Positions 3,368 to 60,235 of a stretch of DNA of 64,000 nt are shown here, piece after piece (positions within the stretch are counted from its first letter, which is position 1; each line of letters starts with the position of its first letter). A model generated the notes under the pieces. That model was not told the origin of the DNA and made no database searches. It saw only the letters and a program-made list of their open reading frames with translations. Source of the DNA: an uncultured Lentisphaerota bacterium (GTDB taxonomy: Bacteria; Verrucomicrobiota; Kiritimatiellia; RFP12; UBA1067); the NCBI GenBank assembly GCA_900321255.1, contig ONVK01000005.1, positions 41-64,040 of the forward strand. Reading direction: 5' to 3'. Made by a program: the position numbers and the translations under genes.

Positions 3368-3398
3368 TTTCTGATCCTTCCGTCCTGGAGGAGACAGA

Positions 3399-3424: not shown

Positions 3425-3447
3425 ATCTCACAGGACTTCTCTTGCTG

Positions 3448-4418
<971 letters not shown>

Positions 4419-11532: not shown

Positions 11533-11763
11533 TTATTCGACGACGATCTGGTAGAAGCACGTCGGCTCGTTGGGGTCGCGCGCAATCGTGAAGAGGAGCT
11601 CGCCCGCAGTCGCGACAGGATTTTCCATGGGCACGACCTGCGCGTCCTTCAGCCCTTCGAGCGTCGTCGACTTCTTGTAGCCGTAGACATGACCGACAAT
11701 GGCATTGTCGATTGTTATCTTGATTCCGTCGCTCCCGTTGTCGAACCCGGAGATCGAGGGCTT
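11533..11763 (-). other. Shared C-terminal domain, copy 1 (ends CFYQIVVE)
   Basis: ...GHVYGYKKSTTLEGLKDAQVVPMENPVATAGELLFTIARDPNEPTCFYQIVVE* aligns with the termini at 16616-16864 and 32630-32878. Confidence 0.75.
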
Positions 11764-13296
11764 GTAGTCGTCGGGGAGCGGTTTGGTCGGATCGACTGGG
11801 TCGTCGGAAGCATCGAACTCGCCCTGGTAGCAGCCGATGTCGACCTTGCCCTTGTAGAGACGCGAATGCCCAGCCAGGTCGGTGGCGGCGGACATCCATT
11901 CAAGGACTGCGCCGTGCGCATTCAGCACCGAGCCGTCCGCGGGACGGAAGTCACCGCTCGAATAATTCGCGAACTTGATGCCCTCGTTGTCAGCGCGGCA
12001 AGAGAGATTGGAGCTGACGCCCGTAGTGTCGACATTGACAACTGTCATAAGGTCCGGATTCTCCGATGCACCTTTGAACACGCAGTTCGCGACCTGCACT
12101 CCAGCAGGTAGTCCGCTGTAGTGGAAAGTGATGCCGCAGCCGCCCTTGGTTATCTTGGCACCCTCGCACTTCCACTCTGTGTTGCCCCAGAATACGCAGT
12201 TCTCCAGCAAGGGGGTCATCGCGTCGGCCTTGCAGAACACCCCGCCGGCGTTGTCCACGAACGTGCAGTTCACGTAGGAGTCCGAGCCGAACAGCTGTAT
12301 GGGAAGTTTGTTGTCAACAAAGAGTGTGTTACGGCACTCTGGGGTTGACTGATCATTGACCCAGGGACGCGTCGAGATTCCGTTCACGGCACTGATGGCG
12401 TCAGTCTCCATGAGTGTGTCATACTTCGCCTTCGCCGCCGCATAGCAGTTGGAGACGATGCAGCGGTCGATGACGGAGTATGCCTCTCCGACGAGCGGAC
12501 CTTCGTCGATGCCGGCGAACACGCAGTCCTCGACAAGAAGGTGCGCCCTGCCGCCGGACTGCGACATGCAGATGATGCCTGTGGAAGTCGGCAGCACCGC
12601 CACTCCCATGTTCGAAAACACGCAGTTTGAAACGACCGACGAGCTGTGCAGCATCACGACGCTCCAGGCCTGGCGCGTACAGGCGTCAAACGTCGAGTTC
12701 TCCACCCAGAAACTTCCGCAAACCGCGCCGCCCTGCGAGACAGAGTTGTCGCCATGCGAACCGCAGGCCTTGAAGTCGCAACCGGTAATGACCGGATAGT
12801 TTGCGCGAGCTTCGATTCCGCTGCTGCCAACGTCCGCACCGTCGGATGTAGCCATGCCGCCCGCGCGCTTGCCGTGGCAGTTGACGAACTCGCAGTCGCG
12901 GATTTCGAATCCTGACATGGCATTGTCGCCCGAGGAGACATACACCGTGGCATTGTCATTGAGGTCTGAGGCGTTCTGGATCGTCAAGCCGGAAATCTTG
13001 ACGTTAGGCGCGTGCACGTAGAATACAGCGTTAGCCCTGGCCGGTTCTGCCGTCGAGCCACCGTCAAGAATCGTAAGACCCTTGCCTGCACCTGTTATCG
13101 TCACAGACTTGGTAATTGTGATCTCATTCGTAACCTCATACAAACCCTCATTGAGGATAATCTCGTCGCCGCTGGAAGCGGTGGAGATTGCCTTGGAGAG
13201 TCCGGCAAAGTCACTTACCGTGGTTTGCGCGGCACCGGCGGTGAATGAAATGCTCGCGACAAGCGCGGCTGTTGCTATGAGAGTTTTCGTGTTCAT
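11533..13296 (-). CDS. Secreted right-handed beta-helix (pectate-lyase-fold, choice-of-anchor-Q-like) protein with a (C/G)FYQIVVE C-terminal domain
   Basis: 587 aa with a signal peptide (MNTKTLIATAALVASISFTAGA). It has repeated NC/ENS beta-helix rungs and a DIGCYQ motif. The last 76 aa are homologous to the C-termini of the two giant proteins. Confidence 0.7.
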   Translation of the reverse strand: MNTKTLIATAALVASISFTAGAAQTTVSDFAGLSKAISTASSGDEIILNEGLYEVTNEITITKSVTITGAGKGLTILDGGSTAEPARANAVFYVHAPNVKISGLTIQNASDLNDNATVYVSSGDNAMSGFEIRDCEFVNCHGKRAGGMATSDGADVGSSGIEARANYPVITGCDFKACGSHGDNSVSQGGAVCGSFWVENSTFDACTRQAWSVVMLHSSSVVSNCVFSNMGVAVLPTSTGIICMSQSGGRAHLLVEDCVFAGIDEGPLVGEAYSVIDRCIVSNCYAAAKAKYDTLMETDAISAVNGISTRPWVNDQSTPECRNTLFVDNKLPIQLFGSDSYVNCTFVDNAGGVFCKADAMTPLLENCVFWGNTEWKCEGAKITKGGCGITFHYSGLPAGVQVANCVFKGASENPDLMTVVNVDTTGVSSNLSCRADNEGIKFANYSSGDFRPADGSVLNAHGAVLEWMSAATDLAGHSRLYKGKVDIGCYQGEFDASDDPVDPTKPLPDDYKPSISGFDNGSDGIKITIDNAIVGHVYGYKKSTTLEGLKDAQVVPMENPVATAGELLFTIARDPNEPTCFYQIVVE

Positions 13297-13334
13297 GACG
13301 CGGATATTTTCGCAAATACCCGCCCGTCAAGCAA

Positions 13335-13350
13335 CTACTCACATGGGTAA
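13335..13350 (-). promoter_or_regulatory. Palindromic operator (degenerate copy) abutting a -35 element, upstream of 11533-13296
   Basis: The minus strand reads TTACCCATGTGAGTAG followed immediately by TTGCTTGACG. There is one mismatch to TACCCAnnTGGGTA. The -10 is less clear (AAAATA). Confidence 0.5.
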
Positions 13351-13366
13351 TTCGTTCAAACAAGGA

Positions 13367-14494: not shown

Positions 14495-14507
14495 GTCATT
14501 GTTCCTT

Positions 14508-16610: not shown

Positions 16611-16615
16611 GTCCG

Positions 16616-16864
16616 TCACTCCACGACTATCTGGTAGAAGCCACTCGGCTCGTTCTCCGCTTTCGGAATCTCGAGCGTCAGCACACCGTCCGCCGACGCG
16701 GGATTTTCGAAATACACGACGGGCGCGTCCTTGAGCCCTGCGAGGGTTACGGACTTCCTGTAGCCGTACCGATGACCCGCCGCGGCGTTGCCGATAGTGA
16801 TGGACACCTTGTCGGACGACACGGCGAACGGAACCTCAACCCCTTCGCCTCCGATCACCGGCGC
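16616..16864 (-). other. Shared C-terminal domain, copy 2 (ends GFYQIVVE)
   Basis: APVIGGEGVEVPFAVSSDKVSITIGNAAAGHRYGYRKSVTLAGLKDAPVVYFENPASADGVLTLEIPKAENEPSGFYQIVVE*. It is also similar at nucleotide level to 32630-32878. Confidence 0.8.
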
Positions 16865-19800
16865 GTCGGGCTCGGTTGCCGAGCCGCTTCCGCCGAGCCC
16901 CGTCAGCTTCAGCGCGCAGATGCGGCTAACGGTCGTTGCAGTCACCGTGAAGCCAAGAACAGTCTTGGTCGTAGTCGCGCCGCCGTCCGAGACGAGATAG
17001 ACGCCGTACGAGCCGTCGCTCAGCTGCGGACCGAGCGCGATTCCCTCGTACACGATCATGTTGTCTTTGTCCGTGCCATGGAAGTCGATCAGCGGCGACC
17101 CCTTCTCGACCGCGGTGAACTGCGCGTTAGTAAGCGCCGATACGCCGGAGACTTCCGTTGCCGCGGCAAGCGCACCTGTCGTGATGCGGTAGATGCGGCA
17201 GCGCCCCCAAGTCGCCGTGCTGACTTCGCGCTCGAGCGCGAGGAGCGATCCGTCGGGCAGCGCGCAGAGACCCGAGAGCCCGCTCTGCGCGGAGATCGTA
17301 TCTGCGCACGGATCGCATGCATACGCCCACTCTCCCGCCGCCGTCCATCCGTCCTGCGCCGTCGTGCGCGTAAAGCGTGTCAGGCGCACGACCGTGCTAA
17401 CCGTCGTATTTCCGCTTGACGATTCGCCGTCGCACGTGAGCGCCTGTTCGTTCGCGGTCCACATCGTGAGTCCATCAGGCGAGATCGTCAGGGACTCTAG
17501 CGACAGGTTGGAGCGCAGATGCTCGCGCTGGACTGCAGGGACGGGCGCGGTTCGTCCCGTAGCCGTTCCGTCAAGCGCAAACTCTGCAATCGACGGCGGC
17601 TCCCATTCGTCGCTGATCCACAGAGCGCCGGAGAGCGGATCGCGCGCAAGCCCCTCGGAGTTACGGCATCCCGCCGGCGTAACCGCCGCGCCGAGCGTCT
17701 GGCTCTCGATGGCGCCTGTCGCAGAATTGATGCCGATCGTCAGCGGATATATCTTCGCATATCCGTCGTTGTCGTCATGGTCCTGCAATACATAGAACAA
17801 TCCGCCCTCTCCGGAATACGTGATGCCGCCGCATCCGTTCGCGCCAAATGGATATTCCGCAATCTTCGCGAGATGCAGAGTGTTGGTGGTGTCCGGTCCT
17901 GGGACGATCGGCTCGACCGTCTCGCCGCCGCCCGATCCTCCGCCACCCGAACTCTCGCCAAGGTCGCGCACCTGCACGGCGGCGACGAATCGTCCGGCGC
18001 CGGATCCGCCCATCTTGAACGTGACGACGTGCGACGCGGCCTCTGCCGTAAACGAACCGTAGACCGTCGCGCCGGAGGATCCGTTCCCGTTCTGGATGCT
18101 GACGGACGGCAAATCACCGATCGTGATGTAGGCGTTGCCATACGAGTTGCGCGCCAGTATCTGCAGGAGATACGCGTGGCCCGCTGTCAATCCCGAAAGC
18201 GTCAAATGGATTTCTCCCATGCCGGTGTCCACGCCGAAGTTCCAGGCCGTGCCAAGGAGCGAGCTACTTCCCGCGTCCGCGCCCGCATTGACGAAGGCGG
18301 GACTGAATGAGATGTTCGCTGACGAAAGATCGGCCCCGGCCTGAAACGTAACATCACCCAAGGTGCGGTCGGTCGAAGCGCCGCGATAGGCATAGAGAAG
18401 CATGCCTTCGGTGCGGAGCATCGTTTCGTCAGACGCAGGCAATGTCGCAACGGTCCAGTCGACCATAGGCACGGGATCATCTCCTCCGCCCGACCCACCT
18501 CCGCTTGTCTGCTGCACGATCGGATAGTCGGCGGCGACGAACGTCTTGTTGCCTGCGAGCGTGAATACGACCGGGTTGCCGCTCACGATCTCGTAGCCCT
18601 CGGCTGCGGCAAAATTAACAGTTACCTGCGTATTCGAGACAATCGTGTAACTGCCCGCAACCGCCGCCACAGCGACGCCGTTCGTCGTAACGGAATCAAG
18701 GTCAAGCCCCGTCATTGCGGGAATCGTCAGCTCGCAGACCAGCGTCACAGGATCGGGATCGACAGGATCGTCGCCACCGCCGCCGCCCTCGCCAAGGTTT
18801 CGCACCTGTATGGCGTTGAGCACGCGGCGCCCACCAGAGCCGGAAAAAGCAATCTCGACGTTCGCAGTCGCGCCAGCGGCCTCGAACACGCCCGTGAATA
18901 TCGCACCGTACTTGGCGTCGTCGCCCTGCAGTCCGACCGGCCCCTTTCCGCCGATGGAGATATTCACTCCGGGCGACCAATTGTGGTGCGCCAGTATCTG
19001 GACCAAGTAGCGGTTCCCGGCCGTCAGCCCCTTGAGCGTCAGCGTTGCGCTGTTCTGGTTCTGGCTCCACACCCATGTGTTCGCGAGCATCTTCCCGAAG
19101 TCGCCCGAAGCGCCCTCAGAGCCCGAATTGCCGTCCGTTGCGTTGAACGCCGGCGAGATCGATGTGCCTGCGGTCTCGAGATCGGCGTCCGCCGCGAACT
19201 CGATTCCGTTGACCGTCACCGACGAGACGGCATAGGCGTAGAGGAGTGTCCCGTCCGTGCTGAAAAAGCTCCCGTTGGCCGTCGCGGCCGCGCCAGTCCA
19301 GCCGGTCTCGACGGGATCCCCGCCACTGCCGCCACCGCCGCCACCACTCGACGTAGCGATCGTGAAAGAGACCGACTTCGCCGCCGAGGTCTTGTTCTTG
19401 TCGGTAGTGATCGTGACGCCGCATGTGTATTCGCCGTCGGCGAGATTCTCAATGGAGAAGGTCGCCGTCGCGCCGGTCTGGTTCGAGAGCGCTGCGACGG
19501 GGGTCCCGCCATTTAGCGCATAGGAGACGGAATAGGAAGTGGCGTTAGTCCCGGCATCGTCCGTCCCCATCACGATGCCGGAGAGAAAAAGCGACACGCT
19601 GCTCCCGTTCGGAGTCGCGGAGACCGACCCGATCGACGGCTCGACGACCGTCGCCCCGCCTTCTCCGCCGCCACCCGATTCTCCGTCAGAAATCTCGCGG
19701 ACCTGAACGGCATTGAACGGCATCTTGCCGCTCCCGCCCTGATAGGTGATCGTCACGTCCTTCGTCGCGCCGACGGCCGTGAAGACGCCCGTGACGAGCG

Positions 19801-22800
19801 CGCCGTACTTTCCGCTCTCAGCATTGTCGCCGTGGATGTGCACGGGGTCACACCCGTTAGCGGAGACGATCGTCGTATTGTTAAAAAAGTTGTGCGCCAG
19901 GAACTGGACGAGGTACTTCTTCCCGCCTGCGAGATTCGAGAGCGTCAGCGTGACCGTGTGCGTGCCCGCACCGTCGCTGTCCCAGTACCAGCCGTTGCCG
20001 AGGGTGAGACCGAAGTTGCCGCCGACGCCTTCGTTCAAGAAGTCGCCGGTGAAGCCGTCAATGTTGGGCGTGAAGGAAATCTTCGGAGGATTATCCGAGG
20101 ACTGGAGGTTTATCGACCGCTCGAACGGGATGCCATTGATGGTCCCGCCGTTGCACACGTAGCCGTATACGAAGGTGCCCTCAGTGCTGAAGGAGTTTCC
20201 GGACGCGTCCATCAGTGTCGAAGTCCAGACGTCGGAGACGGCGGACGTGTTGACGTAGAAGACGACCGACTTCGTCTTCGTCCGGCCCTTGTCCGTCGTC
20301 ATCGTCACCTCGCAAGTGTGGTTGCCGTCCGCAAGGCCTTCAAGCGTGAACGAGCTGTCCGTCGTCTGGTCGGTTAGCGCCGTCGCGGCGGAGGATGCTC
20401 CGTCGAGCTTGTAGGTGACGGAATACTTTGTCGCTGGAACAGAATTGGCGTCCGTGCCCAAGACCACGCCAGCGAGCGAAATCGTCGCATTCGATCCGCT
20501 CGGCGCCGCGGTGAGCTCCGTGATGCGCGGATACTTCGGACGGTTGTTCATCGCGCGGTTCTGCGCGAACAGCCAAACGAACCGGTGGTTCGGCGCGCCC
20601 GCCGTGACGTCGTCCGTCCTTGAATAGCATGTCGTCCAGGCGTCGTGGCTGTTGTTCTCAAGCTTCTCGAAGATGACGTCCGACCCGAGCGCCCTGAGTG
20701 CCGTGACGATGCCCTCGGTCTGCTCGACGGGAATGGTCGGGTCGCCTCGGTTGTGGACGGCCAAGACAGGGACGTGCGCGATGTCGGCCGCACAGGCGGG
20801 ATCGCCGCCGCCGCAACACGGCATCGCCGCGGCGAAGAAGTCGGGACGGCGGCAGATCGCGTCCCATGTGCCATGCCCGCCCATGGAGAGCCCGGTGACG
20901 TAGATGCGGTTGGCGTCGACATCCGCCATCGCGGCGTAGGAGTCGAGAAGGTCGAACACCGCCTGGAGCGCCGAAGACGGCTTGTCCTGGAACGTGCACG
21001 TTGTCGAATTCATGGAGAACTCCGCCCACTTGACGTCGTTAGGACACTGCGGAACGAGAAGCCTGTAGCCGCTGGAAACGCCCGCACCGTCGAGATAGCT
21101 CTTGATGTTCGTCATCTCGTTGATCGTGAACGAATTGTCGACGCCGCACTGACCGTATCCGTGAAGGAACACGACGACGGGAACCTTGCCGCCGTTCGGA
21201 TCGGCCTTCGCCGCGACGCGGTAGGGGAGGTGAAGCTTGTTGGACGCGATGAATGTCTTCTTGACGAATTCGCCCGTCAGTTCTTCGCCGCCGCCACTTT
21301 CTCCGCCACCGGTCTCGCCACCACCACTTTCGCCGCCGCCACTTTCACCGCCGCCAGTCTCTCCGCCACCGCCTTCTCCTCCGCCCTCTCCGAGTTCGCG
21401 TAGCTGGATGGCCTTGACCTCGAACTTGCTGCTCGATCCGGAGAAGTTGACGACGACATTCTCCGTGGTGCCGGATGCCTCGAACACACGGGTGATAACG
21501 GCGCCGTACTTGTAGTCGTTGCTGTCGTTTGCGGTGACTGGGGCGATGTCGCCCGCAGAAACAGTTATGCCGCTGCTGTTGTGGTAGTGGCTCGCCACGA
21601 TCTGGACGAGATACTTGCGTCCGGACGTAAGCCCCTTGAGCTTGAATGTGACGTCCGTAGACGTTCCGGACATGTTCCACCACCAGAAGGCGTTGATGAT
21701 GTTGTTGTTGACGCCGAGGCCCCAGCCATCGCCGCCGGCCTTCGCAGGAGTTGTCTCGAGCGACGCATTCGAAGGATCGGAGCTCGACGCGAACGTCACC
21801 CCGCCGGCCGTGTCGCCGCCCTTCGCGATCGCGAAGACCTGCGTGCCGTCGCCGCGTATCGCGGAGCCGTCAGCTGTCATCGGCGCGACCTTCCAGCCGA
21901 CCGCGTCCGCCTGGGAATCCACCAGGAACTTTACGCGCTTCGGCGCGGAGACCATGCCATCGCCGGTCTTCACCATCACCGCGCAAGAGTGCCAGCCGTC
22001 GGCGAGATCCGCAAGCGAGAACGACGCCGTCGCGCCCGTCTGCGCCGTAAGCACCGTCGCCTCGGCGGCCGTGTCGAGCTTGGCGAGAACGGAGTAGGAC
22101 GACGCGGCGACACCGTTCGCGTCCGTGCCTTTCGTCACGCCGGAAATCGAGATCGTCGCCGACGTGCCGCTAACCTGCGCGGCAACGTCGCCAAGTGCGG
22201 GAAGCGTCACCGAAGAGGCGCCGGCCGCAGCCATGGCGGCGGAGATCGCAGGCGCCATGATCTCGCGGTAGCCCTTGGCCGAAAGGTGCAGGAACATGTC
22301 GGGATAGTCGCCGTCCTTCTCGAGGTACATCTCGCCCTTGAAGGTTCCGTCGGCGTTGAGGAACTGGCTGCGGACGTCGACGAGGATCACACGCTGTCCG
22401 TCCGCGTATGTCTTGATGATTTCGTTCGCCGTCTCGTTGTTGGCATACTGCGCCATGCCGGTCGCGTTATGCTGCGCGTTCGTGTAGCCGTAGGGGAGGA
22501 TCGGCATCAGGAGGACCTTCGACTCGGGATGCTTCGCGAGAACGAGATCCAGAACAGCCTTCACGCCCGCGGCGATGTCCGCGGGATCGTCCTTCGCCGG
22601 CTCGCGCTGGATGGTGTTGTTCGTGCCGATCAGGAGGTTGAAGAACTTCGTCGTGTAGCCGTCGAGGCATCCGCCCTCGAGACGCCACAGGAGGTTCTCG
22701 GTGAAATCGCCCGTGCGCCCGAGGTTGAACACCTTCGAGCCCAGTCCGTTCATGGAATCAGGATCGCTCGAGGACCACTTCTGCGTGATGGAGTCGCCGA

Positions 22801-23686
22801 GAAGGACGATATCGTAGCTCTTGCCGCCGATTGCGGACAAGTCGAACAGGTACTTCTCCCAGAAGAAGTTCTCCATCACCGCCTTGGACGACGGATAGGT
22901 TGCCGTCACCATATTCGCGGGACGCGCCGTCGCCACGAAGTCGGCGGGCATCGCGGCGCCGCTCGAAGCGGCGTCGACGTAGGGCGCGACCGCCTGCGCC
23001 CAGACTTCGTAACCGGACGCGTTAAGGGTGGCGTGATCGGCGTTGAAGAGCGAGGTCTTAAGCGTGTGGTGGTCCGACTCGAGGAAAAGGTCAGACATGT
23101 CGACCCACGTGCAGCCGTTCGCCTGGGCGTAGCGGCGGATTTCGTTGTTGACGAGGTCGTTGCGCGGACGCACGGGGTCGGACTCGTCGAGCCCGCGCGG
23201 CAGAATCGCCTGGACGACGATCTTGGCGGAGCTGTAGTTGGCCGCGAGGTAGTCGATTATGTCGCGGACCGCGCGGATGGTCTTGCCTGGCCCCTCCTCG
23301 GCCTTTGTGTAGATCGCGGAATTGTTGCCGCCGACCATGAGGAAGATCGCCTTGGGGCTTCCGATCTCGCCGTTCTGAATGCGCCAGAGGACGTTCTCGG
23401 TGCAGTCGCCGTCGAAGCCGAGGTTGAACATCGCCTTGTCGCCGGTGAAGTGCGACGCAAGCGCGGCCGCGCCTGTCGTCTCCCAGTCCTGCGTAAGTTC
23501 GTCACCGATGAAGACGATGTCCTTCTTTACGGAACTGTCCGCGAGCGCCGCGACCTTCTCGGCATGGCGTGCCGCCCACCAGTCGTCGACGCGAGAGACA
23601 GGCGTGTTCGCGCGGAAAGCCGCAAAGACATTCGACGCGACAAATGCGAGGCAAGAAGCAACGAGGAATTTAAGTGTTTTTGTCAT
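16616..23686 (-). CDS. Giant secreted mosaic protein A (2356 aa): 2x SGNH/PAF-AH-like esterase, 3 Ig-like modules, 4 malectin-like CBM modules, alpha/beta-hydrolase esterase, phytase-like beta-propeller, shared C-terminal domain
   Basis: Signal peptide MTKTLKFLVASCLAFVASNVFA; start 23686 chosen. SGNH domain 1 has GDELT (Ser replaced by Glu). SGNH domain 2 has an intact GDSIT...GTNN...HLSAKGY. The esterase has LHGYGQCG...GLSMGGHG. The phytase-like region has NSEGLARD...ISDEW...LESLTISPDG...LLALERE...YEGIALGP...LVSDGG. The protein ends GFYQIVVE. Confidence 0.85.
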   Translation of the reverse strand: MTKTLKFLVASCLAFVASNVFAAFRANTPVSRVDDWWAARHAEKVAALADSSVKKDIVFIGDELTQDWETTGAAALASHFTGDKAMFNLGFDGDCTENVLWRIQNGEIGSPKAIFLMVGGNNSAIYTKAEEGPGKTIRAVRDIIDYLAANYSSAKIVVQAILPRGLDESDPVRPRNDLVNNEIRRYAQANGCTWVDMSDLFLESDHHTLKTSLFNADHATLNASGYEVWAQAVAPYVDAASSGAAMPADFVATARPANMVTATYPSSKAVMENFFWEKYLFDLSAIGGKSYDIVLLGDSITQKWSSSDPDSMNGLGSKVFNLGRTGDFTENLLWRLEGGCLDGYTTKFFNLLIGTNNTIQREPAKDDPADIAAGVKAVLDLVLAKHPESKVLLMPILPYGYTNAQHNATGMAQYANNETANEIIKTYADGQRVILVDVRSQFLNADGTFKGEMYLEKDGDYPDMFLHLSAKGYREIMAPAISAAMAAAGASSVTLPALGDVAAQVSGTSATISISGVTKGTDANGVAASSYSVLAKLDTAAEATVLTAQTGATASFSLADLADGWHSCAVMVKTGDGMVSAPKRVKFLVDSQADAVGWKVAPMTADGSAIRGDGTQVFAIAKGGDTAGGVTFASSSDPSNASLETTPAKAGGDGWGLGVNNNIINAFWWWNMSGTSTDVTFKLKGLTSGRKYLVQIVASHYHNSSGITVSAGDIAPVTANDSNDYKYGAVITRVFEASGTTENVVVNFSGSSSKFEVKAIQLRELGEGGGEGGGGETGGGESGGGESGGGETGGGESGGGEELTGEFVKKTFIASNKLHLPYRVAAKADPNGGKVPVVVFLHGYGQCGVDNSFTINEMTNIKSYLDGAGVSSGYRLLVPQCPNDVKWAEFSMNSTTCTFQDKPSSALQAVFDLLDSYAAMADVDANRIYVTGLSMGGHGTWDAICRRPDFFAAAMPCCGGGDPACAADIAHVPVLAVHNRGDPTIPVEQTEGIVTALRALGSDVIFEKLENNSHDAWTTCYSRTDDVTAGAPNHRFVWLFAQNRAMNNRPKYPRITELTAAPSGSNATISLAGVVLGTDANSVPATKYSVTYKLDGASSAATALTDQTTDSSFTLEGLADGNHTCEVTMTTDKGRTKTKSVVFYVNTSAVSDVWTSTLMDASGNSFSTEGTFVYGYVCNGGTINGIPFERSINLQSSDNPPKISFTPNIDGFTGDFLNEGVGGNFGLTLGNGWYWDSDGAGTHTVTLTLSNLAGGKKYLVQFLAHNFFNNTTIVSANGCDPVHIHGDNAESGKYGALVTGVFTAVGATKDVTITYQGGSGKMPFNAVQVREISDGESGGGGEGGATVVEPSIGSVSATPNGSSVSLFLSGIVMGTDDAGTNATSYSVSYALNGGTPVAALSNQTGATATFSIENLADGEYTCGVTITTDKNKTSAAKSVSFTIATSSGGGGGGSGGDPVETGWTGAAATANGSFFSTDGTLLYAYAVSSVTVNGIEFAADADLETAGTSISPAFNATDGNSGSEGASGDFGKMLANTWVWSQNQNSATLTLKGLTAGNRYLVQILAHHNWSPGVNISIGGKGPVGLQGDDAKYGAIFTGVFEAAGATANVEIAFSGSGGRRVLNAIQVRNLGEGGGGGDDPVDPDPVTLVCELTIPAMTGLDLDSVTTNGVAVAAVAGSYTIVSNTQVTVNFAAAEGYEIVSGNPVVFTLAGNKTFVAADYPIVQQTSGGGSGGGDDPVPMVDWTVATLPASDETMLRTEGMLLYAYRGASTDRTLGDVTFQAGADLSSANISFSPAFVNAGADAGSSSLLGTAWNFGVDTGMGEIHLTLSGLTAGHAYLLQILARNSYGNAYITIGDLPSVSIQNGNGSSGATVYGSFTAEAASHVVTFKMGGSGAGRFVAAVQVRDLGESSGGGGSGGGETVEPIVPGPDTTNTLHLAKIAEYPFGANGCGGITYSGEGGLFYVLQDHDDNDGYAKIYPLTIGINSATGAIESQTLGAAVTPAGCRNSEGLARDPLSGALWISDEWEPPSIAEFALDGTATGRTAPVPAVQREHLRSNLSLESLTISPDGLTMWTANEQALTCDGESSSGNTTVSTVVRLTRFTRTTAQDGWTAAGEWAYACDPCADTISAQSGLSGLCALPDGSLLALEREVSTATWGRCRIYRITTGALAAATEVSGVSALTNAQFTAVEKGSPLIDFHGTDKDNMIVYEGIALGPQLSDGSYGVYLVSDGGATTTKTVLGFTVTATTVSRICALKLTGLGGSGSATEPDAPVIGGEGVEVPFAVSSDKVSITIGNAAAGHRYGYRKSVTLAGLKDAPVVYFENPASADGVLTLEIPKAENEPSGFYQIVVE
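17954..19305 (-). repeat. Dispersed cassette block in gene A: CBM 'X' - bridge - CBM 'Y' (read 5'->3' on the minus strand)
   Basis: Nucleotide-level similarity to 36160-37495 and, for the Y part, to 41733-42237. The same antisense shadow ORFs recur (e.g. ...RYAWPAVNPE.V.WISPMPVSTPKF.AVPRSELLPA...). Confidence 0.8.
21284..21388 (-). repeat. Seven tandem 15-bp units encoding a (G/S/T)GGGE linker
   Basis: The units are ttcgccgccgccact / ttctccgccaccggt / ctcgccaccaccact / ttcgccgccgccact / ttcaccgccgccagt / ctctccgccaccgcc / ttctcctccgccctc. They encode GEGGGEGGGGETGGGESGGGESGGGETGGGESGGGE. Confidence 0.9.
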
Positions 23687-23717
23687 GGCAGAAATCTCAG
23701 TTTGATTTTCTGCCTGT

Positions 23718-23762
23718 ATTGTACCTATTCTATCGTCCAAGCTCAATTACCCAGCTGGGTAT
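23718..23762 (-). promoter_or_regulatory. Operator + promoter of giant gene A
   Basis: The minus strand reads TATACCCAGCTGGGTAA-TTGAGC-17 nt-TACAAT. TACCCAGCTGGGTA (23748-23761) is a perfect 14-bp palindrome. Confidence 0.65.
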
Positions 23763-23788
23763 AAGGATCGAGCGACGTTGCGAGCTTG

Positions 23789-26700
23789 TCATTCGCCGAA
23801 GCGGATGCGGTAGGCGAATGACTTTGCGTCGCATTCGACCTTGAGCGTGTTTCCGGACTGGCTCCACACGGGCGTCTTGGCCCCGTCCTGCGAATCCACC
23901 GCATCGACGCCAGCAACAGCGCGCCCTGCAGCGCCAAAAACGGCAAGGTCGATCTCGACCGAGAAAGCTCTGGAATACGGCAGCGGAACAATCGTCCAGT
24001 CTGCGAAGCGCAGCGCTCCGTCGGTCGCAACTCCGCCAAAAGACACGGCGCGCCCCGCAGGCGGCTTGCGAGCGTCAACGAAGAGCCCGTTTGCCGACTT
24101 TGCGAAGGCGAAGCGAAGGCCGTCCTTCTCCACGATACCGCTCTCCGTGCCACGCGTATGCGCGTAGTAGCCGTAGGGCGGCAGCACCTTGCCGTTCGGA
24201 AGCCGCCACGTCTCGTTCGTCTGGCGGTTCACCCAAACTTCGCCACCGTTCGAGAAAAACGCATGCTGGCGGTGGATGCTGCCTTCGTACTTCAAGTCGA
24301 GGAACTCGGCGCGTCCGAGTTCGGCGCAGGCATCGTGCTGGAGCCAATACGTCTTTACCGCATTCCGCGAAAACGGCCCGTCGCACATCGGATTGCGTCC
24401 GCCGAGAATGGCGTTGGAAAGATAGTCGTCTGAAGCATAGCCGTGGAGTTCGGCGTCGCCGCCAGTGTGCCAGCCGTCCTCCTCCTGATAGCGATTCCCG
24501 AGCCCACCCGCGAACAGGACGTAGTAGCCGTGCGTCACTATGTCGTGCCACGGCGTGCGCTCGCTGTCGGCGAAGTTCCCGCTCCCAATCACCTTCGCAG
24601 CGCCGAAGTGGTCGCTCTGCCCGGCGTCCGCGACGCCCACGAGATGATCCTGCCCGGCCTCGCTGACGCATACAGTATCTGGGCGTCCGAAGCCCATGCG
24701 ATAAGTCTGGAAACCACGACCCCAGTTCGCCGAGACCTCGTTCTTCGTATGGAACCGGCCCTCGCGGTCCAAGTAGTCGAACGGGCCATGCGCCGTAAAG
24801 ACATCGATGAAAACCGCCTCTGGGTCGTAGCCCTGCTTCAGCAGCCTGGCGTTCCTAAAGCACCATGGAAAGAACGCGTGCGGCGCAAATCGGTAGGCGC
24901 GCGCGTGGCGGCCGGGATTGAACCAAGTCTGCTCAGGGGTGCCATCGAGCTTGAACGCCACGAGGTCATAGGAAAATCCATCACAGTCTGGATAGATGTC
25001 TGCGTAGTTGTCATGCGGGCAGAAGAGAATTCCGGCATCGCGGCAAGCTTTGCGCATCGCGCCAAACGCCGCGGCGTCTCCACGTGGCGGATAGATGTCT
25101 GGGAAACGGTAGTCGTATCCCCAGCGCTGCCAGTCGTGCTTTACGAAAATCGCGTCGTTGAGGCCGTACTTCGCCGCAAGCGCAATGTCCGCCGCCGCTT
25201 TTTCGTAGTCACCACCCCACTGGTCGAGGCACATCCTCGAACCGAGCGCGGCATGACCCGGGCTTGCCTTGTATCCTGACACGGCGCGGAACCGGCGCGC
25301 CGCCTCGAACGAACCCTTCGACGAGGGGACGAACGTGAACGTCGCGTCGTGGTGTGCGTGGAGCGAGAAAATGTTCCGAGAGCCGTCGCAGTCCACCGAA
25401 TCAGGCACAACGTCCACGGCATGCACCACGGAAAGCCCGTTTAAGTAGTCTGTACCTACATGGCGCGTGGAGAGCAGGAATCCGCTGGCGCGGGCCGAAA
25501 ACCTCTTCGGTCCCTCGATTACGTTGCCGAAGCCAAAGTAGACGCGGTGCGGAGTGACGCTCGCAGGCCCCACGGCAAGATCGACGATGCGGGGAAAGCC
25601 GCCTGCGCCACGCTTCGCGCCGGGAATGGACCAGGAAACGCGCAGAGTGCCCTTCTCCTCGCGGATCGACGCAATTGGCTCGGGCGCAGGGGAGCCGTCG
25701 TCCGTCTCGACGCGCGCGGCAAACCCGCGGAACACGACAGACTTATCGCCGTCCGTGAACGCAAGCGCGCCATCCACAAGCCCGCGCTCGCCATAAGCGA
25801 TTCCAGCTCCGTACACAATGCCGCCGGCATCGAGGCGCCAGCGTCCGGCCGCAGGATCAGTCCCAGACGTGCGCGCCGTCTTTGCCGCCGCAAGCGCCAG
25901 CGCGCAGCGCGCAGCCCAGTCGGCTTCACCGGGAGTCCTTGGCTGCGGACCGATTAGCAGCTTCACGTCGCCCCAGCCACCGCTGTCGTAGCTTGTGTCC
26001 ATCTTGGGGCCTGGCCCCGTCCAAAGGCGAAGCGTGACTTTCTTCCCGGCCCACGGGGCGAGATCGCCCGACATGTCGCGCCATAAATCCACGTCATTCA
26101 CAACCTGCGAGCAGACGACCTTCGGTTCTGCACCTTCTTCCAGAACGAGAACCTTGTACTCCACGCCGTCTGACGACGACTTGCCGCGGTAGGGGTCCAG
26201 AAAATTCGAGCAGGAAAACGCTAGTGGCGTCACGCCAGGCAGATCGAGGGAAAAGTCACTCCAGATGAACCCTGCCCCCTTCTTGTATGGCGGATGGCTT
26301 TTGAAACCGTTCTTCGCGATGCCGTCTGCCGACATACGGTCCTTCGACATCAAGGCGCCCCATTCGTCAGTCGATCCCGACTCCGGCACCTCGACGACCT
26401 CCCCTCCGACCTCAAGTGCAGTCGTACGCGCGAAACCGTAGTCGAGGCGGAACACGCCGGGGCTAAGTCTGGACGGAGCGATCTTCGGCACGCGGCGCGG
26501 AGCATCTGGATTCTTGAACATGAACACCGCGACCGGGTGCGGCGCATCGTCTTTCTTTGCGCCGGCAGGCGTAAACCGCGCATGAACAGGATAGAGGGCG
26601 TCGAGCGCACGCGGACGCGCAGCGCCAGTAAACGACAGCCCTTTCTTCTCTCCTGGCGCAAGCGAGATGGTCCCCTTTGGCCCCGTCACATCCCAGTCGT

Positions 26701-26959
26701 CGTTCATCCACACTTCTAGCTCTCCGGAGACCGGCTTGCCTGTTTTGTTTTCAAGCGTCACGGGAAACAAACGAGGAGCGCCGGCATGAACCTCGGTGAC
26801 GCCCAAAGGCCAGAGGAACTTGTTCTTGCCGGAACGGTCTATCTTCTGCGGGAAAGACCCTATCTCGACCTTCACGCCGCAACGCTCATCCACCGGCGGC
26901 AGGTATGCAGCCGCCGTTAGCACAGTCGCTGCGACGAAGAGCGAAAGCAGAAATTTCAT
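23789..26959 (-). CDS. Large secreted hypothetical protein, possible glycoside hydrolase (family not recognised)
   Basis: Signal peptide MKFLLSLFVAATVLTAAA. The start at 26959 makes an ATGA overlap with the upstream stop. A central region rich in W/D/Y (FVKHDWQRWGYDY...CPHDNYADIYPD) is suggestive of a sugar-processing barrel only. Confidence 0.5.
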   Translation of the reverse strand: MKFLLSLFVAATVLTAAAYLPPVDERCGVKVEIGSFPQKIDRSGKNKFLWPLGVTEVHAGAPRLFPVTLENKTGKPVSGELEVWMNDDWDVTGPKGTISLAPGEKKGLSFTGAARPRALDALYPVHARFTPAGAKKDDAPHPVAVFMFKNPDAPRRVPKIAPSRLSPGVFRLDYGFARTTALEVGGEVVEVPESGSTDEWGALMSKDRMSADGIAKNGFKSHPPYKKGAGFIWSDFSLDLPGVTPLAFSCSNFLDPYRGKSSSDGVEYKVLVLEEGAEPKVVCSQVVNDVDLWRDMSGDLAPWAGKKVTLRLWTGPGPKMDTSYDSGGWGDVKLLIGPQPRTPGEADWAARCALALAAAKTARTSGTDPAAGRWRLDAGGIVYGAGIAYGERGLVDGALAFTDGDKSVVFRGFAARVETDDGSPAPEPIASIREEKGTLRVSWSIPGAKRGAGGFPRIVDLAVGPASVTPHRVYFGFGNVIEGPKRFSARASGFLLSTRHVGTDYLNGLSVVHAVDVVPDSVDCDGSRNIFSLHAHHDATFTFVPSSKGSFEAARRFRAVSGYKASPGHAALGSRMCLDQWGGDYEKAAADIALAAKYGLNDAIFVKHDWQRWGYDYRFPDIYPPRGDAAAFGAMRKACRDAGILFCPHDNYADIYPDCDGFSYDLVAFKLDGTPEQTWFNPGRHARAYRFAPHAFFPWCFRNARLLKQGYDPEAVFIDVFTAHGPFDYLDREGRFHTKNEVSANWGRGFQTYRMGFGRPDTVCVSEAGQDHLVGVADAGQSDHFGAAKVIGSGNFADSERTPWHDIVTHGYYVLFAGGLGNRYQEEDGWHTGGDAELHGYASDDYLSNAILGGRNPMCDGPFSRNAVKTYWLQHDACAELGRAEFLDLKYEGSIHRQHAFFSNGGEVWVNRQTNETWRLPNGKVLPPYGYYAHTRGTESGIVEKDGLRFAFAKSANGLFVDARKPPAGRAVSFGGVATDGALRFADWTIVPLPYSRAFSVEIDLAVFGAAGRAVAGVDAVDSQDGAKTPVWSQSGNTLKVECDAKSFAYRIRFGE

Positions 26960-29019
26960 GCTCGAACGGATTGCCGTGGACATTCTACCTGATCACGACA
27001 ACCGTTCCGACATCCGCACCGAACAGATATTCGCAATCGCTCTTTCTGCGAAGCTTTCCATTTGGTAGAGCCGGCAAGCTTACCCTCAAAAGCCAGCGTG
27101 GGTTCGCCATTCACACGCAGAGCCGCAAACGCCGTGACCGCCTTGCAGTGCTTGTACGCCGCCAAGTTCTCAGGATCCGTAATCGTGAACGTCGCACCGG
27201 GCTCGAATGTAAGGTTGCCGTCAACATCTGCATGTTTGCCCGCGAACAGGTCTGCGCACGAGGCGCGTAGCGAGTTCGTCACCGTGATGTCGCACCCCGG
27301 CACGCTGCCGGCGCCACTGAAGGAGGAGAGGAAGAGCGGCGCTGGGTTCGCGAACCGCAACGTCGCGCCATACGCGACGCGGACGGACGTGTTGCTCGGC
27401 ACGACGCCGTCCGTTTCGGCGTAGAGCGTGCCCGATTCGACCGCGATGCCGTAGAACGTGTTGGTGGCGTATAGATGGAGATCGTGCTCACCACGCTTCA
27501 CGAGTTCACCGCCAAGACACGCGTTGTCCGAGAGCGTAAGCGCGCATTCCCAGCGCGTGGTGCGGTCGGGACTCTCCACGTACGCCTTCGCGTTGTCGCT
27601 GTAGTCGCAGCCGCGCGAAGTGAGGACGACGCGCGTGTGCTTCTTCGTGGCGAAGTCGTATTCAGCGTACGCGCTCGCGCCCCAGCCGGCCTCGTCCTCG
27701 AACACGATGCGCGCGGGGCCGATGTAGTTGGCCGTCGTGTAGTCTCCCTCGGTCGGCAGCGTGATGGACTCCACGCCCTTTCCTGTCGGTGCCGCAAACG
27801 AGAACGGCATGTGGCTCGCGGGGTCGTTTCCAGTGGATTCCGACGTGTCAATGACAAGACCCTTCTTCCAGATCACAAAATGACTGGGATTAGCCGTGTA
27901 GTAGTTCGCATCGTTCTGCGAACCGTTGGTCCAGTCGTAACCCATCGTCGGCATTAGCGTTCCGCCGTCGGCGTTGACGACAATGCGCGAAGCCGCGCCG
28001 GCGGCCCTGTGCTTGAAGAAGCGCGCCGCCTTTACCATTGCGCCATCCTTCACGTTGAAAATATTCGTGGAAACGGTTCCGCCGCCACCTCCGAAGCGCA
28101 GCGTCTCGGTCGCGAGCAAAGTTCCATCGCCCGACACCGTGACGTCGGAAGAACCGCCGTAGTCACTGAGATAAAAACGCTCGCTCTGTCCGCCCTGCGC
28201 GACACGTGTGTCGTTCGTGCCGCCGCTCACGTGGAACACGGCCGAACCGCCGCGGCCGACACTTAGTTTTCCGTTGTCCAGCTTGAAGAACCCGCCCGTC
28301 TGGATAAAGCTGCCGAAACTGCCGGCAACCTTCGCGACATAGACGTCATTGCTCGCATACGCTTCACCGCCCGACATGACCCAATGCGCGGTGCTCGACG
28401 CAGTAGGTCCGATTTCGGTCTTGCCGCCCACGCCAAGAACGCCGCCGGCCTGGTGGAAGACACCATAGTTGCTGTCAGGGCCTACGTAAATCGCATTGAA
28501 TAGCGCATGCCCGTCGCCGACCATCGACCTACTTCCGCCTTTCAGGACGAACGAATTGCCGAACACGCGCGAAGCCGTACTGGTCATGGCCAGAAGCCCC
28601 TGGTCAATCTGCACTGGGCGCGGAAGTTCGACGGCACCGTTCACGTAGAGCGTGCCCGACCCCTGTTTCCGGAAGATTTGCGACGAACCGGTCCCGCTGC
28701 CGGCCAGGGTTCCGTTGAGGTAGTGTACGTTCTGCCCTACGGTTACGAAATAGAGCGCGCCTTCCTCGATCACCACGTCGCCGGCATACTCAAGAGTCGT
28801 CGTCCACAGCTCCACCTTGCCGGCGCCCCTCTTAACGACTCGCGAATAGCCGTCAATCGCCGCTTCGACTTTGTATGATTCATCCGACTCGGCCGAGACA
28901 ACGTAATCCGCCCCGTCCGGACCAGCGCTGCCGGCAAACGTAGAAACCGGCGCTCCCGCCATGACCACCGCGCCAAGCGCCGCCAACATTACAATTCGCC
29001 TAGAATATCCTGCCATCAT
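26956..29019 (-). CDS. Autotransporter-associated beta-strand repeat (PATR) protein, secreted
   Basis: 687 aa with a signal peptide (...AGAPVSTFA). It has repeated segments such as VKRGAGKVELWTTTLEYAGDVVIEEGALY, QGSGTLYVNG and LVKRGEHDLHLYATNTFYGIAVESGTLY. A GAGGTG SD precedes the ATG. Confidence 0.7.
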   Translation of the reverse strand: MMAGYSRRIVMLAALGAVVMAGAPVSTFAGSAGPDGADYVVSAESDESYKVEAAIDGYSRVVKRGAGKVELWTTTLEYAGDVVIEEGALYFVTVGQNVHYLNGTLAGSGTGSSQIFRKQGSGTLYVNGAVELPRPVQIDQGLLAMTSTASRVFGNSFVLKGGSRSMVGDGHALFNAIYVGPDSNYGVFHQAGGVLGVGGKTEIGPTASSTAHWVMSGGEAYASNDVYVAKVAGSFGSFIQTGGFFKLDNGKLSVGRGGSAVFHVSGGTNDTRVAQGGQSERFYLSDYGGSSDVTVSGDGTLLATETLRFGGGGGTVSTNIFNVKDGAMVKAARFFKHRAAGAASRIVVNADGGTLMPTMGYDWTNGSQNDANYYTANPSHFVIWKKGLVIDTSESTGNDPASHMPFSFAAPTGKGVESITLPTEGDYTTANYIGPARIVFEDEAGWGASAYAEYDFATKKHTRVVLTSRGCDYSDNAKAYVESPDRTTRWECALTLSDNACLGGELVKRGEHDLHLYATNTFYGIAVESGTLYAETDGVVPSNTSVRVAYGATLRFANPAPLFLSSFSGAGSVPGCDITVTNSLRASCADLFAGKHADVDGNLTFEPGATFTITDPENLAAYKHCKAVTAFAALRVNGEPTLAFEGKLAGSTKWKASQKERLRISVRCGCRNGCRDQVECPRQSVRA

Positions 29020-29054
29020 GGGTTCACCTCTTCTTTCTGGGATTTTCCGATGGC

Positions 29055-29099
29055 ATTATAACAACATGCCAAATCTGGCTCAACTACCCACCTGGGTAG
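29055..29099 (-). promoter_or_regulatory. Operator + promoter of the PATR-protein operon
   Basis: The minus strand reads CTACCCAGGTGGGTAG-TTGAGC-17 nt-TATAAT. The palindrome lies at 29084-29099. Confidence 0.65.
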
Positions 29100-29104
29100 C
29101 CAAC

Positions 29105-32100: not shown

Positions 32101-32512
32101 CCGCGCGAATGCGCCCCGCCTTCCCGCCCCGATAGCGGATGCTAACGCCCTGATAGTCGTTTGAAAGAACGGTCACTTTCCTTCCCAGTGGATCCACATG
32201 CCAATCAGGTGAATTGGACGTGCGGGCATGAGGAAGCGGCGCCTTGCGGAAAAAGGCGATCCCTTCTCCAGTAAGCGAGTCCTCGATGAAAAGCGCGGGC
32301 GCAGAGACGTCAAACGGCTTTTCGCAGCGGGAAAGCAGATATTCCTTCTCGAAATAGAGCTCGTCGTGCCTGTCCGTGTCGTCCATCAGCTGGACTTCGA
32401 CAAGACGCGGATGATTCCACGAGTAAGAATAGACTTCACTATCCGCAGCCGCGCATGATAGCGCGCAAGAGATGGCGAGCAAGGCAAGCAGACCTGATGT
32501 TCTGACTGACAT
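29105..32512 (-). CDS. GH36-like alpha-galactosidase fused to a C-terminal alpha-helical, (alpha/alpha)6-barrel-like domain
   Basis: LSNTWGDGNRD...GVDVIQIDDGWQKGR...GMKFGLWFGPDSS...VDYFKFDSMH is clan-D GH36/27-like. The C-terminal roughly 600 aa are helix-rich with W/Y/H motifs. The start at 32512 (MSVRTSG..., signal peptide) was chosen because a TATAAT box directly abuts the earlier ATG at 32539. Confidence 0.65.
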   Translation of the reverse strand: MSVRTSGLLALLAISCALSCAAADSEVYSYSWNHPRLVEVQLMDDTDRHDELYFEKEYLLSRCEKPFDVSAPALFIEDSLTGEGIAFFRKAPLPHARTSNSPDWHVDPLGRKVTVLSNDYQGVSIRYRGGKAGRIRAATDFQRRFRPYVAGRDGLFLSNTWGDGNRDACINERFLLAEVASGAELGVDVIQIDDGWQKGRSANSASLAAGEKGRWGSWWEVEGFWDVDPVRFPNGLGKVIGEARSRGMKFGLWFGPDSSNDAANWNKDADFLLSLHRDLGVDYFKFDSMHTPTPLALSRQAMLMDRLMDESDGRITIDLDVTAGRRPGYFAFPRIGPVFVENRYIRENDVRLWWPHRTLRNLWGLAHVVDPVRLRMEVLNPERKSGLYPNGDPLTPICWPRDAIFAISMYSSPLGWFEIQNLSQETVAAWKPLIAQWKRERDAIHDGYIYPVGSAPDGLAWTGFVSAAKDGSAGTALLFRELDASEEFSLPLSDYLNVEGLEPIVIGGRGEARIEDGILKVAVHEKLGFVWMKIKKMEDASAGRSSAESLFATWCDALLARQISGTGDKMIDGGIACPACGVMHGRVCDLVYPLVYRWSTTGDKKYLAAAEKAVEWSEATMLREDGGVYNDYQTLWWGTTVFAQIAIGKTLLYYGEHLPQDLHSRWSEIFKRETDFVVERFDDKFVNTTNVNYPAAFCEAMALAGVVLKDDDKTARAKAMSEKLMAQFLPDGLVTGEGAPMSKRSPHGHAYVDLGYNLEETLPSLLAYAEMCGDAKMKDAVLASAIAHAEFILPDGGIDDSFGSRSPKWTYYGSRTSDGMLPVLAALAKAGVPWAGRAMERYLELFRRCTNSAGLLAGGVQYEAADEPACVHHSFAHIKSIVDVLRGGSIPRKGADARLPRENCYGLKSFPSIGVELAAVGPWRATFAGGDSFVQGMVGHRVSGGGPSLLWHEAVGPLIVGTMADYSIIEARNLQDLRHERTVLSMMPRIEAGDMSSSARDVDVAMKAACVSNAVVCSARGQLTGKRGSRGAAYELVSRVDEKVFSLCGKCDVDARFILPVVALNTDRVEIGNGCVRIEKGSSVVMIESELPFELAKTDRGDRAFSPIGGVLCAYLTAPIRAGDAFGVRISVESK

Positions 32513-32539
32513 ATAACAGCTCTTTGATTGTTTGAGCAT

Positions 32540-32568
32540 ATTATATAGTTTTCAGGCCAGAACCTCAA
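32540..32568 (-). promoter_or_regulatory. Sigma70-like promoter for 29105-32512 (only a proximal half-operator present)
   Basis: The minus strand reads TTGAGG-17 nt-TATAAT. The 15 nt upstream (TGAGTTGATGGGGAA) keep only the promoter-proximal half-site. Confidence 0.45.
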
Positions 32569-32629
32569 TTCCCCATCAACTCAGCACTCGCTCGGCTCAC
32601 CTCTTCGCCCCACTTGTCTTAATCGGACA

Positions 32630-32878
32630 TTATTCCACTACGATCTGGTAGAAGCAGCTCGGCTCGTTCGCGGCCTTCGGAATCTCGAGCGTCAGGATAC
32701 CGTCTGCCGCAGCGGGATTCGCGAAGTACACGACCGTCGCATCCTTGAGGCCGGCGAGCGTCGTCGACTTCCTGTAGCCGTAGGTGTGCCCTGACGCGGC
32801 GTTGCTGATCGTGATCGACACCTTGTCGGATCCGACTACGATCGGACTTGCAACCCCTTCACCGCCGATCACTGGCGC
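32630..32878 (-). other. Shared C-terminal domain, copy 3 (ends CFYQIVVE)
   Basis: APVIGGEGVASPIVVGSDKVSITISNAASGHTYGYRKSTTLAGLKDATVVYFANPAAADGILTLEIPKAANEPSCFYQIVVE*. Confidence 0.8.

Positions 32879-57492: not shown

Positions 57493-60235
<2,743 letters not shown>

Follow-up and report, generated by a model that had tools for sequence, protein, structure and literature searches.

The subject of this analysis is a shared C-terminal module of secreted proteins encoded in a 64,000-nucleotide stretch of DNA (positions 41 to 64,040 of contig ONVK01000005.1, assembly GCA_900321255.1), hereafter called the window, which derives from an uncultured Lentisphaerota bacterium placed within the Kiritimatiellia. 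Three proteins with Sec signal peptides, all encoded on the minus strand, carry at their C-terminus one and the same module of 82-89 amino acids (aa), with the stop codon directly after the last Glu: a right-handed β-helix protein (carrier 1) and two giant multi-domain proteins, hereafter giant A (carrier 2) and giant B (carrier 3). The modules, each with its stop codon, were located by translation, by a hidden Markov model (HMM) and, in one case, by an AlphaFold2 (AF2) model:

11533..11781, minus strand: module of the β-helix protein, 82 aa, reading …KPSISGFDNGSDGIKITIDNAIVGHVYGYKKSTTLEGLKDAQVV…NEPTCFYQIVVE up to the stop (translation, HMM).
16616..16882, minus strand: module of giant A, 88 aa (translation, HMM, AF2).
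32630..32899, minus strand: module of giant B, 89 aa (translation, HMM).

The consensus of the module is …NAxxGHxYGY[KR]KSxTLxGLKDA…NEP[ST][CG]FYQIVVE, after which the frame stops, and the proteins end in …NEPTCFYQIVVE (β-helix protein), …NEPSGFYQIVVE (giant A) and …NEPSCFYQIVVE (giant B). An earlier examination of the DNA without database searches, hereafter the sequence-only reading, had noticed this common ending on three Sec-exported proteins and the stop codon behind the final Glu; minus-strand translation and the HMM bear this out (read on the plus strand, the same coordinates translate to nonsense, the genes lying on the minus strand). The module is also real at about the length then proposed, 76-82 aa, but its limits according to the HMM and the AF2 model are slightly longer, 82-89 aa including an N-terminal P-D-A-P-V-I-G-G strand. 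HMM domain E-values are 1.3e-42 for the β-helix protein (residues 516-597 in the stop-to-stop frame), 1.9e-51 for giant A and 7.1e-52 for giant B. The three copies align with 43 invariant columns, the tail of giant A being 79% identical to that of giant B and 56% identical to that of the β-helix protein. Judged by these values, the similarity lies far beyond chance. No copies besides these three were found when an HMM built on them was run against the six-frame translation of the window. Of 86 codons compared, the tails of the two giants differ synonymously at 24 and non-synonymously at 16, a pattern that indicates protein-level selection and neither a recent duplication nor an assembly repeat or artefact; by this codon comparison, they are evidently old paralogs under purifying selection.

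The carriers, their predicted signal peptides (cleavage sites putative) and a paralog of the β-helix protein that lacks the tail are distributed as follows:

11533..13296, minus strand: carrier 1, a 587-aa secreted right-handed β-helix protein.
13228..13296, minus strand: predicted Sec signal peptide of carrier 1, MNTKTLIATAALVASISFTAGAA cleaved before Q (sequence and hydrophobicity heuristic; ortholog P0028).
16616..23686, minus strand: giant A, 2356 aa (Pfam, NCBIfam, N-termini of orthologs).
23618..23686, minus strand: predicted Sec signal peptide of giant A, MTKTLKFLVASCLAFVASNVFAA cleaved before F (sequence).
32630..40681, minus strand: giant B, 2683 aa (Pfam).
40613..40681, minus strand: predicted Sec signal peptide of giant B, MKTNTLKKVAASVLAAASLVAFG cleaved before D (sequence).
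42337..43833, minus strand: tag-less paralog of carrier 1, a 498-aa β-helix protein with a signal peptide (BLASTP).

Carrier 1 matches the Pfam family Beta_helix (9.7e-13) and also Pect-lyase_RHGA_epim, and has a Pro/Asp-rich linker (…DASDDPVDPTKPLPDDYKP…) ahead of the module; its orthologs (P0028 and L016-L019) keep the tail. In BLASTP, the paralog (42337..43833) covers residues 33-496 of carrier 1 at 32% identity (E 8e-58) and terminates where the linker and tail of the latter would start, which sustains the earlier contention that the tail is modular. Giant A consists of two GDSL esterase domains, an α/β-hydrolase esterase, alternating immunoglobulin (Ig)-like and ~170-aa β-sandwich repeats, a phytase-like domain, a Gly/Ser/Pro linker and the module. 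Its open reading frame (ORF) was listed as 16616..23746 (minus strand) with a TTG start at 23746; the true start is likely the ATG at 23686 (MTKTLKFLVASCLAFVASNVFAA…), matching ortholog P0022. In giant B, a GDSL esterase domain is followed by Ig-like and ~170-aa repeats, then by LTD, CotH, LTD and the module (Pfam CotH 1.4e-18, plus Lipase_GDSL_2 and LTD), and both architecture and tail recur in ortholog P0022. A large search with the CotH domain of giant B, concerned with what occupies the C-terminal slot on such cargo, returned only close Kiritimatiellae fragments.

The giants (16616-23686 and 32630-40681) and a neighbouring protein (40816-42315, all on the minus strand) contain alternating repeats of two kinds, one of ~170 aa (consensus GWT..M…TDGTL.YAY…VNGV.F…L.GL..G..YLVQ…YG…GVFTA…NA.QVR.LG) and one Ig-like of ~90 aa (consensus SIGSVSA…LSG…GTD…SYSV.Y.L…LADG.Y.C.V.I.TDK), of which Pfam models (fn3, Big_13) cover only fragments. 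The ~170-aa repeat may represent another undescribed family.

The three isolated tails match no model of Pfam-A or NCBIfam even at E ≤ 10, nor does the module region within the full proteins, and 43 diverse tails of the family (see below) match no known family in these databases at E ≤ 1, returning scattered single noise matches only. A sequence profile search of the PDB with the module gave nothing meaningful, the only match being a spurious one to protein A. The carriers are named by no public source, and literature searches found no description of the module. The sequence-only reading had taken the module as uncharacterised, and judged by these comparisons it is a previously undescribed domain family.

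An AF2 model of the giant A module (15-sequence alignment) has a predicted local distance difference test (pLDDT) score of 89.3 and a predicted template modelling (pTM) score of 0.75, and shows a β-sandwich of 6-7 strands with one short helix of four residues. The fold is thus predicted with confidence as a small Ig-like β-sandwich. A Foldseek search of the PDB with this model returned nothing below E 0.1 (best E 0.13, TM-score ≤0.55), the best matches being heterogeneous sandwiches of Ig, fibronectin type III (FN3) and carbohydrate-binding module (CBM) types, the last resembling CBM21 and CBM48. The module shares with these domains only the generic fold class, a two-sheet Greek-key sandwich of ~7 strands, and is a member of none of their families.

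As to the family at large, a word-indexed search retrieved 19 close fragments, 18 of which have the ending …FY[QR]I[VL][VTA][EKD] before the stop, the exception (P0017) being truncated and probably frameshifted. When 1.84 billion representative proteins were searched exhaustively with a profile, 61 matches were obtained, 31 with E ≤ 1e-10. In 57 of the 61, the matched stretch stops at a distance of 0-15 residues from the protein's C-terminus, and in 25 this distance is exactly 0. The remaining four comprise one truncated (probably frameshifted) fragment, two spurious partial matches and one true internal copy. (The two matches treated as spurious, P0046 from an eukaryote-like Ig-repeat protein and P0072 from a Firmicute cadherin-like/SLH protein, are repeated partial matches to the profile.) Full-domain matches are therefore terminal in 57 of 58 cases, across at least ten architectures and several subtypes of the tag. 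In the closest subfamily no residue separates the last strand from the stop codon in any copy, whereas divergent subfamilies have 6-15 extra residues past the last strand. A conserved short Pro/acidic extension of this kind (…VVGDRAPQN, …VVTDDPRGK or …LVDFAPIPTTPAE before the stop) is seen in L030-L033, from yak Kiritimatiellae metagenome-assembled genomes (MAGs), and in P0052, P0053, P0057, P0061 and P0064. At the DNA level, the 38 copies in the window and in 11 species-level MAGs are all ORF-terminal, with the stop codon after a short tail at most: the end of the HMM match lies 0-12 codons from the stop in 37 copies, and 29 codons from it in one weak match, a gap we read as truncation of the alignment.

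A signal peptide is present in every carrier with an intact N-terminus (30 flagged, plus one borderline). The proteins to which the module is joined belong to at least ten unrelated families, in agreement with the earlier impression of cargo of unrelated function: GDSL, α/β-hydrolase esterase, phytase-like, CotH/LTD/Fn3_assoc, β-helix, Cthe_2159, GH16, GH141-like, LamG, Tyr-phosphatase, Gly_rich_2 and several unknowns. The sequence-only reading had also named three outcomes that would speak against its proposal, namely a known family, frequent internal positions and a lack of association with signal peptides; instead, no family was matched, 57 of the 61 matches are terminal and the intact carriers bear signal peptides.

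At least three subtypes of the tag can be distinguished by their ends before the stop, …CFYQIVVE, …YGYRFAERL…GFYRIVVE and …NAKAGLYYG…GFYRVVVGDRAPQN together with …FYRVLVDFAPIPTTPAE; every subtype is found on several types of cargo, and the LTD+CotH cargo bears two of them. A metagenomic protein of 300 aa (P0030) has a signal peptide (MNT[KR]TLIATAALVASI…) and a tag of the same subtype as the β-helix carrier with a different cargo, one copy of the ~170-aa repeat standing in place of the β-helix; this looks like a cassette-like swap of cargo between a fixed head and a fixed tail. Another protein (P0037) resembles giant A without its phytase-like domain and has the tail still in terminal position. 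The occurrence of each subtype on several cargos, together with these two proteins, indicates that the module has been shuffled repeatedly, landing nearly always at the C-terminus. Pro/Asp/Gly linkers precede the module.

The taxonomic distribution was assessed by four pattern scans, in which each of 185,579 species was represented by a single genome (the broad subfamily alignment, A4, was too divergent for a genome scan). The module is confined in these scans to 11 MAGs, labelled Kiritimatiellae/Kiritimatiellia, ‘uncultured Verrucomicrobia’ or rumen ‘RUG’ bins and recovered from cattle rumen, goat jejunum, yak cecum and similar sources; those that are named are Kiritimatiellae from ruminant guts. 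One of them (MAG202) has at least eight carriers on at least six contigs, and carriers are dispersed among unrelated genes. The window itself is syntenic with CACYNF010000028.1 (RUG12088). On the evidence of these scans, the domain family appears specific to gut and rumen Kiritimatiellae.

This distribution does not sustain the suggestion, made in the sequence-only reading, of a link with ‘FYRV-type endings’ on large proteins of the Planctomycetes-Verrucomicrobia-Chlamydiae (PVC) group in general, since the scans found the family only in gut and rumen Kiritimatiellae MAGs. Four tag-less proteins with signal peptides in the window, all on the minus strand, end before the stop in …HVYRITATP (8707-11472), …FAYRIRFGE (23789-26983), …GFYFICK (40816-42315) and …HIYRIVK (43912-48903). 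YRI-type endings of such neighbours may explain that suggestion. As homologs of the module, the …HIYRIVK and …FAYRIRFGE tails were rejected for an hhalign probability below 1%, and the …HVYRITATP tail is paralogous to the …HIYRIVK tail; all three were taken as unrelated closing strands.

Within the window, the carriers belong to a 40-kb run of large proteins with signal peptides, including α-galactosidases, a β-lactamase-fold protein, proteins with PATR repeats and unknowns, which is located between rplJ/rplA/rplK-nusG-tuf-tsf-rpsB and secY. The tail is present on only three of the ~11 exported proteins of this run. No dedicated machinery was seen anywhere in the window, whose flanks contain housekeeping genes (ribosomal proteins, EF-Tu/Ts, SecY, LeuRS, PlsX, signal peptidase I, LpoB-like), and nothing resembling the core components of the type IX secretion system (T9SS; PorK/L/M/N, SprA/Sov, PorU, PorV) was found within the window.

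Other features of the region may be mentioned here. The block of exported proteins (~40 kb, 8700-49100) lies entirely on the minus strand, at an unusual insertion site for a cargo island. Envelope-type genes follow at 52534-57010 (minus strand), encoding a retropepsin-like aspartyl protease (Asp_protease_2), a lipoprotein of the LpoB family, a 464-aa protein without hits and a PEGA-domain protein; no link between these genes and the tail was found. The tuf gene (3230-4418, minus strand) is apparently frameshifted, for its ORF of 252 aa (3660..4418) runs out of frame over the last ~35 residues and does not take in the C-terminal domains; the cause is probably an assembly indel and not decay into a pseudogene. 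The leuS gene (57493-60235, minus strand) is apparently split into an ORF of 789 aa (catalytic and editing domains) and an overlapping ORF of 175 aa (57493..58020, anticodon-binding domain). This second apparent frameshift in an essential gene suggests that the contig carries indel errors.

By analogy, the module behaves in genomic terms like the C-terminal domain (CTD) of T9SS cargo, the dockerin or the SLH domain, yet is a member of none of these families. The dockerin (type I/II) is likewise a mostly C-terminal module, of ~70 aa, found on many unrelated secreted enzymes of fibre degraders in gut and rumen (Clostridia, Ruminococcus, anaerobic fungi), and its cargo in cellulosomal bacteria includes kinds that also bear the module, namely GDSL/SGNH, CotH and FN3 proteins (PMC3413522; PMC12484212). 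However, dockerins are helical, with duplicated Ca-binding EF-hand-like motifs that bind cohesins, whereas the module is predicted to be all-β bar one short helix; moreover, no match to the dockerin family PF00404 was found in the three tails or the 43 family tails. We know of no cohesin-like partner for the module. SLH domains and LPXTG signals of monoderms are comparable as C-terminal devices for surface retention of large exoproteins but unrelated in fold and chemistry, the module having no transmembrane helix, basic tail or SLH match and its host being a diderm. The GlyGly-CTERM/rhombosortase and PEP-CTERM/exosortase systems are also lineage-restricted C-terminal tags of Sec-exported proteins, often dependent on type II secretion, and were discovered by the same logic of a common tail on unrelated cargo; those tags, however, combine a short motif with a transmembrane helix and an Arg-rich tail, whereas the module is a globular domain of ~85 aa.

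The sequence-only reading had set the module apart from PEP-CTERM and LPXTG-like signals, from autotransporter barrels and from the T9SS CTD consensus, and all three distinctions withstand closer analysis. The tails (…EPSxFYQIVVE) contain neither a hydrophobic stretch of 15-20 residues nor a basic cluster as in PEP-CTERM, LPXTG, GlyGly-CTERM and MYXO-CTERM, and match no sorting signal of NCBIfam. The autotransporter barrel of type V secretion (PF03797) has 12 strands and ~250 aa or more, whereas the module is a predicted sandwich of ~85 aa without a Pfam match. Nor does the tail have the features of an outer-membrane β-signal, in which a final F, Y or W closes an amphipathic strand of a β-barrel: members of the close subfamily end in E or K, a Pro/acidic extension follows in others, and the sandwich is predicted to be soluble. 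Type I secretion signals, which are unstructured, usually accompanied by RTX repeats and borne by proteins lacking a Sec signal, do not apply either, as the carriers have Sec signal peptides, the tail is predicted to be folded and no RTX/HemolysinCabind matches were found.

We tentatively favour the reading of the module as a lineage-specific C-terminal tag for surface retention or docking; the earlier proposal of a candidate uncharacterised sorting or anchoring tag is a reasonable one. Under this reading, an autonomously folding sandwich of ~85 residues would be tethered by a Pro/Asp/Gly-rich linker to the far C-terminus of Sec-exported proteins, mostly very large, multi-domain and hydrolase- or adhesin-like, and after export would target these exoproteins so that they are held at the cell surface, either through an envelope component (outer-membrane protein, lipopolysaccharide or capsule) or by docking onto a partner or scaffold. 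A targeting role is favoured by the terminal constraint on a folded, selected and modular domain in combination with unrelated exported cargo. Among known systems, such a terminal pattern typically marks modules for sorting, anchoring or docking, whereas ordinary Ig and CBM domains occur at any position. We infer that the positional constraint reflects targeting and that the target would be the cell surface rather than a translocon, every statement on partners being meant in the same conditional sense.

Among targeting roles, retention or docking ranks above a signal for outer-membrane translocation on several grounds: only three of the ~11 exported proteins of the cluster carry the module; most carriers are giants rich in Ig/CBM-like repeats, a type of protein that is displayed on cell surfaces; 6-15 extra residues are tolerated in divergent subfamilies and there is one internal copy; and the same cargo classes carry dockerins, while weak cargo homologs end in SLH or IPETG tails. 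As to the latter, weak homologs of one carrier's cargo have three SLH domains at their end (Clostridiales MAG; Pfam 1.6e-39), and another weak cargo homolog (Eubacteriales MAG) has an LPXTG-like end composed of IPETG, a transmembrane segment and a basic tail. (The tail of a cargo homolog from Paludibacteraceae resembles a T9SS CTD by eye; Pfam did not confirm this at E ≤ 0.01, and it was not counted.)

Several points weigh against this reading. The comparison of what occupies the C-terminal ‘slot’ relies on cargo homology that is weak and partial (E 1e-5 to 1e-4). The internal copy (P0070, E 2e-4) belongs to a complete gene, in which a Gly/acidic linker, a GDSL domain and a CelD_N/GH9-like region come after it. 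Around the carriers at other loci of MAG202, the neighbours have nothing in common, and no recurring non-cargo neighbour was found. The AF2 model of the whole β-helix carrier (pLDDT 57, shallow alignment) is too poor to judge the independence of the domain. In addition, the invariant residues (N, Y-G, F) look like determinants of the fold (a tyrosine-corner-like G-x-x-Y and a core Phe) more than like an obvious binding site. Finally, the family is young and narrow, and its terminal bias could in part be inherited through 3′-end recombination rather than selected.

The last point leads to the strongest of the rival explanations, which we consider possible but less probable than a tag: the module would be an ordinary accessory β-sandwich (for CBM-like binding, as a spacer or as a cap) without any sorting role, its C-terminal bias arising from 3′-end recombination in a young lineage. 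The generic Ig/FN3/CBM-like fold agrees with this, as do the best, non-significant Foldseek matches, which include starch-binding domains of CBM21/CBM48 type and FN3 (TM-score ≤0.55, E > 0.1); conserved aromatics (Y-G-Y, F-Y) could serve as a platform for sugar binding; there is the one internal copy; with 61 of 1.84 billion clusters, the family is tiny, and it is limited to one clade; and terminal CBMs are common in carbohydrate-active or adhesin-like proteins such as the carriers. However, similarity to sandwiches such as CBM21, CBM48, Big and FN3 does not reach the family level, and known CBM and Ig families are not restricted in position but sit N-terminally, internally and C-terminally, whereas the module is terminal in all but one of its full-domain matches. 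Furthermore, the other Ig/CBM-like repeats of the giants are internal, and their arrays never include the module, while its conserved residues suit structural roles.

That the module is instead a signal for translocation across the outer membrane, read by an undescribed secretion or attachment machinery of Kiritimatiellae, much as PorV/PorU/SprA recognise the T9SS CTD (which PorU removes), and possibly cleaved after transport, appears unlikely. In gross anatomy it does resemble the type A CTD of T9SS (PF18962/TIGR04183, Por_Secre_tail), an Ig-like sandwich of ~70-100 aa at the extreme C-terminus of Sec cargo of unrelated function, the module itself being ~80-90 aa; both are modular, with tagged and untagged paralogs coexisting. 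The absence of any residue after the last strand throughout the closest subfamily would suit such a signal, and giant folded proteins need some route across the outer membrane. Nevertheless, the models of T9SS CTDs are unmatched even at permissive thresholds (E ≤ 10 for the three tails, E ≤ 1 for the 43 family tails), both those of type A and those of type B (TIGR04131 and CHU_C, PF13585), and there is no specific structural match, no T9SS CTD structure being among the 50 best Foldseek matches to the PDB listed. T9SS is not known outside the Fibrobacteres-Chlorobi-Bacteroidetes group, nor in PVC bacteria, the host group of the module. The tail is also missing from most secreted proteins of the cluster, divergent members accept short C-terminal extensions and one copy is internal, and no candidate machinery lies near any carrier examined.

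A broader variant is more doubtful still, namely that the tail is what a dedicated, as yet undescribed PVC sorting pathway recognises, for outer-membrane translocation or for covalent or non-covalent surface attachment; this pathway would have evolved independently in gut Kiritimatiellae as an analogue of T9SS or sortase systems, with its machinery encoded elsewhere in the genome and co-varying with the tail from species to species. The probability that the module is an artefact (chance resemblance, a mis-assembled repeat or a frame error) is negligible, for although the apparent frameshifts in tuf and leuS imply some indel errors in the contig, this explanation is refuted by in-window E-values of 1e-42 to 1e-52, by in-frame, ORF-terminal copies that occur independently in 11 other species-level MAGs and in many metagenomes, by synonymous divergence between copies indicative of protein-level selection, and by the confident AF2 fold.

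Kiritimatiellae are common and uncultured members of rumen and hind-gut communities and encode very large secreted enzymes and adhesins, and how such proteins are exported and displayed by diderms of the PVC group is poorly understood. No T9SS CTD, PEP-CTERM or dockerin was found on the carriers described here; those three systems were discovered through just such a genomic signature, one strictly terminal module borne by unrelated cargo. The family provides a marker, ready for use as an HMM, to list the probable surface proteome of gut Kiritimatiellae, a defined domain of ~85 aa for studies of binding, partners and structure, and a handle for phylogenetic profiling toward a partner machinery. 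Even if the module merely binds, it would still be a new, unannotated domain family on carbohydrate-active proteins of the rumen.

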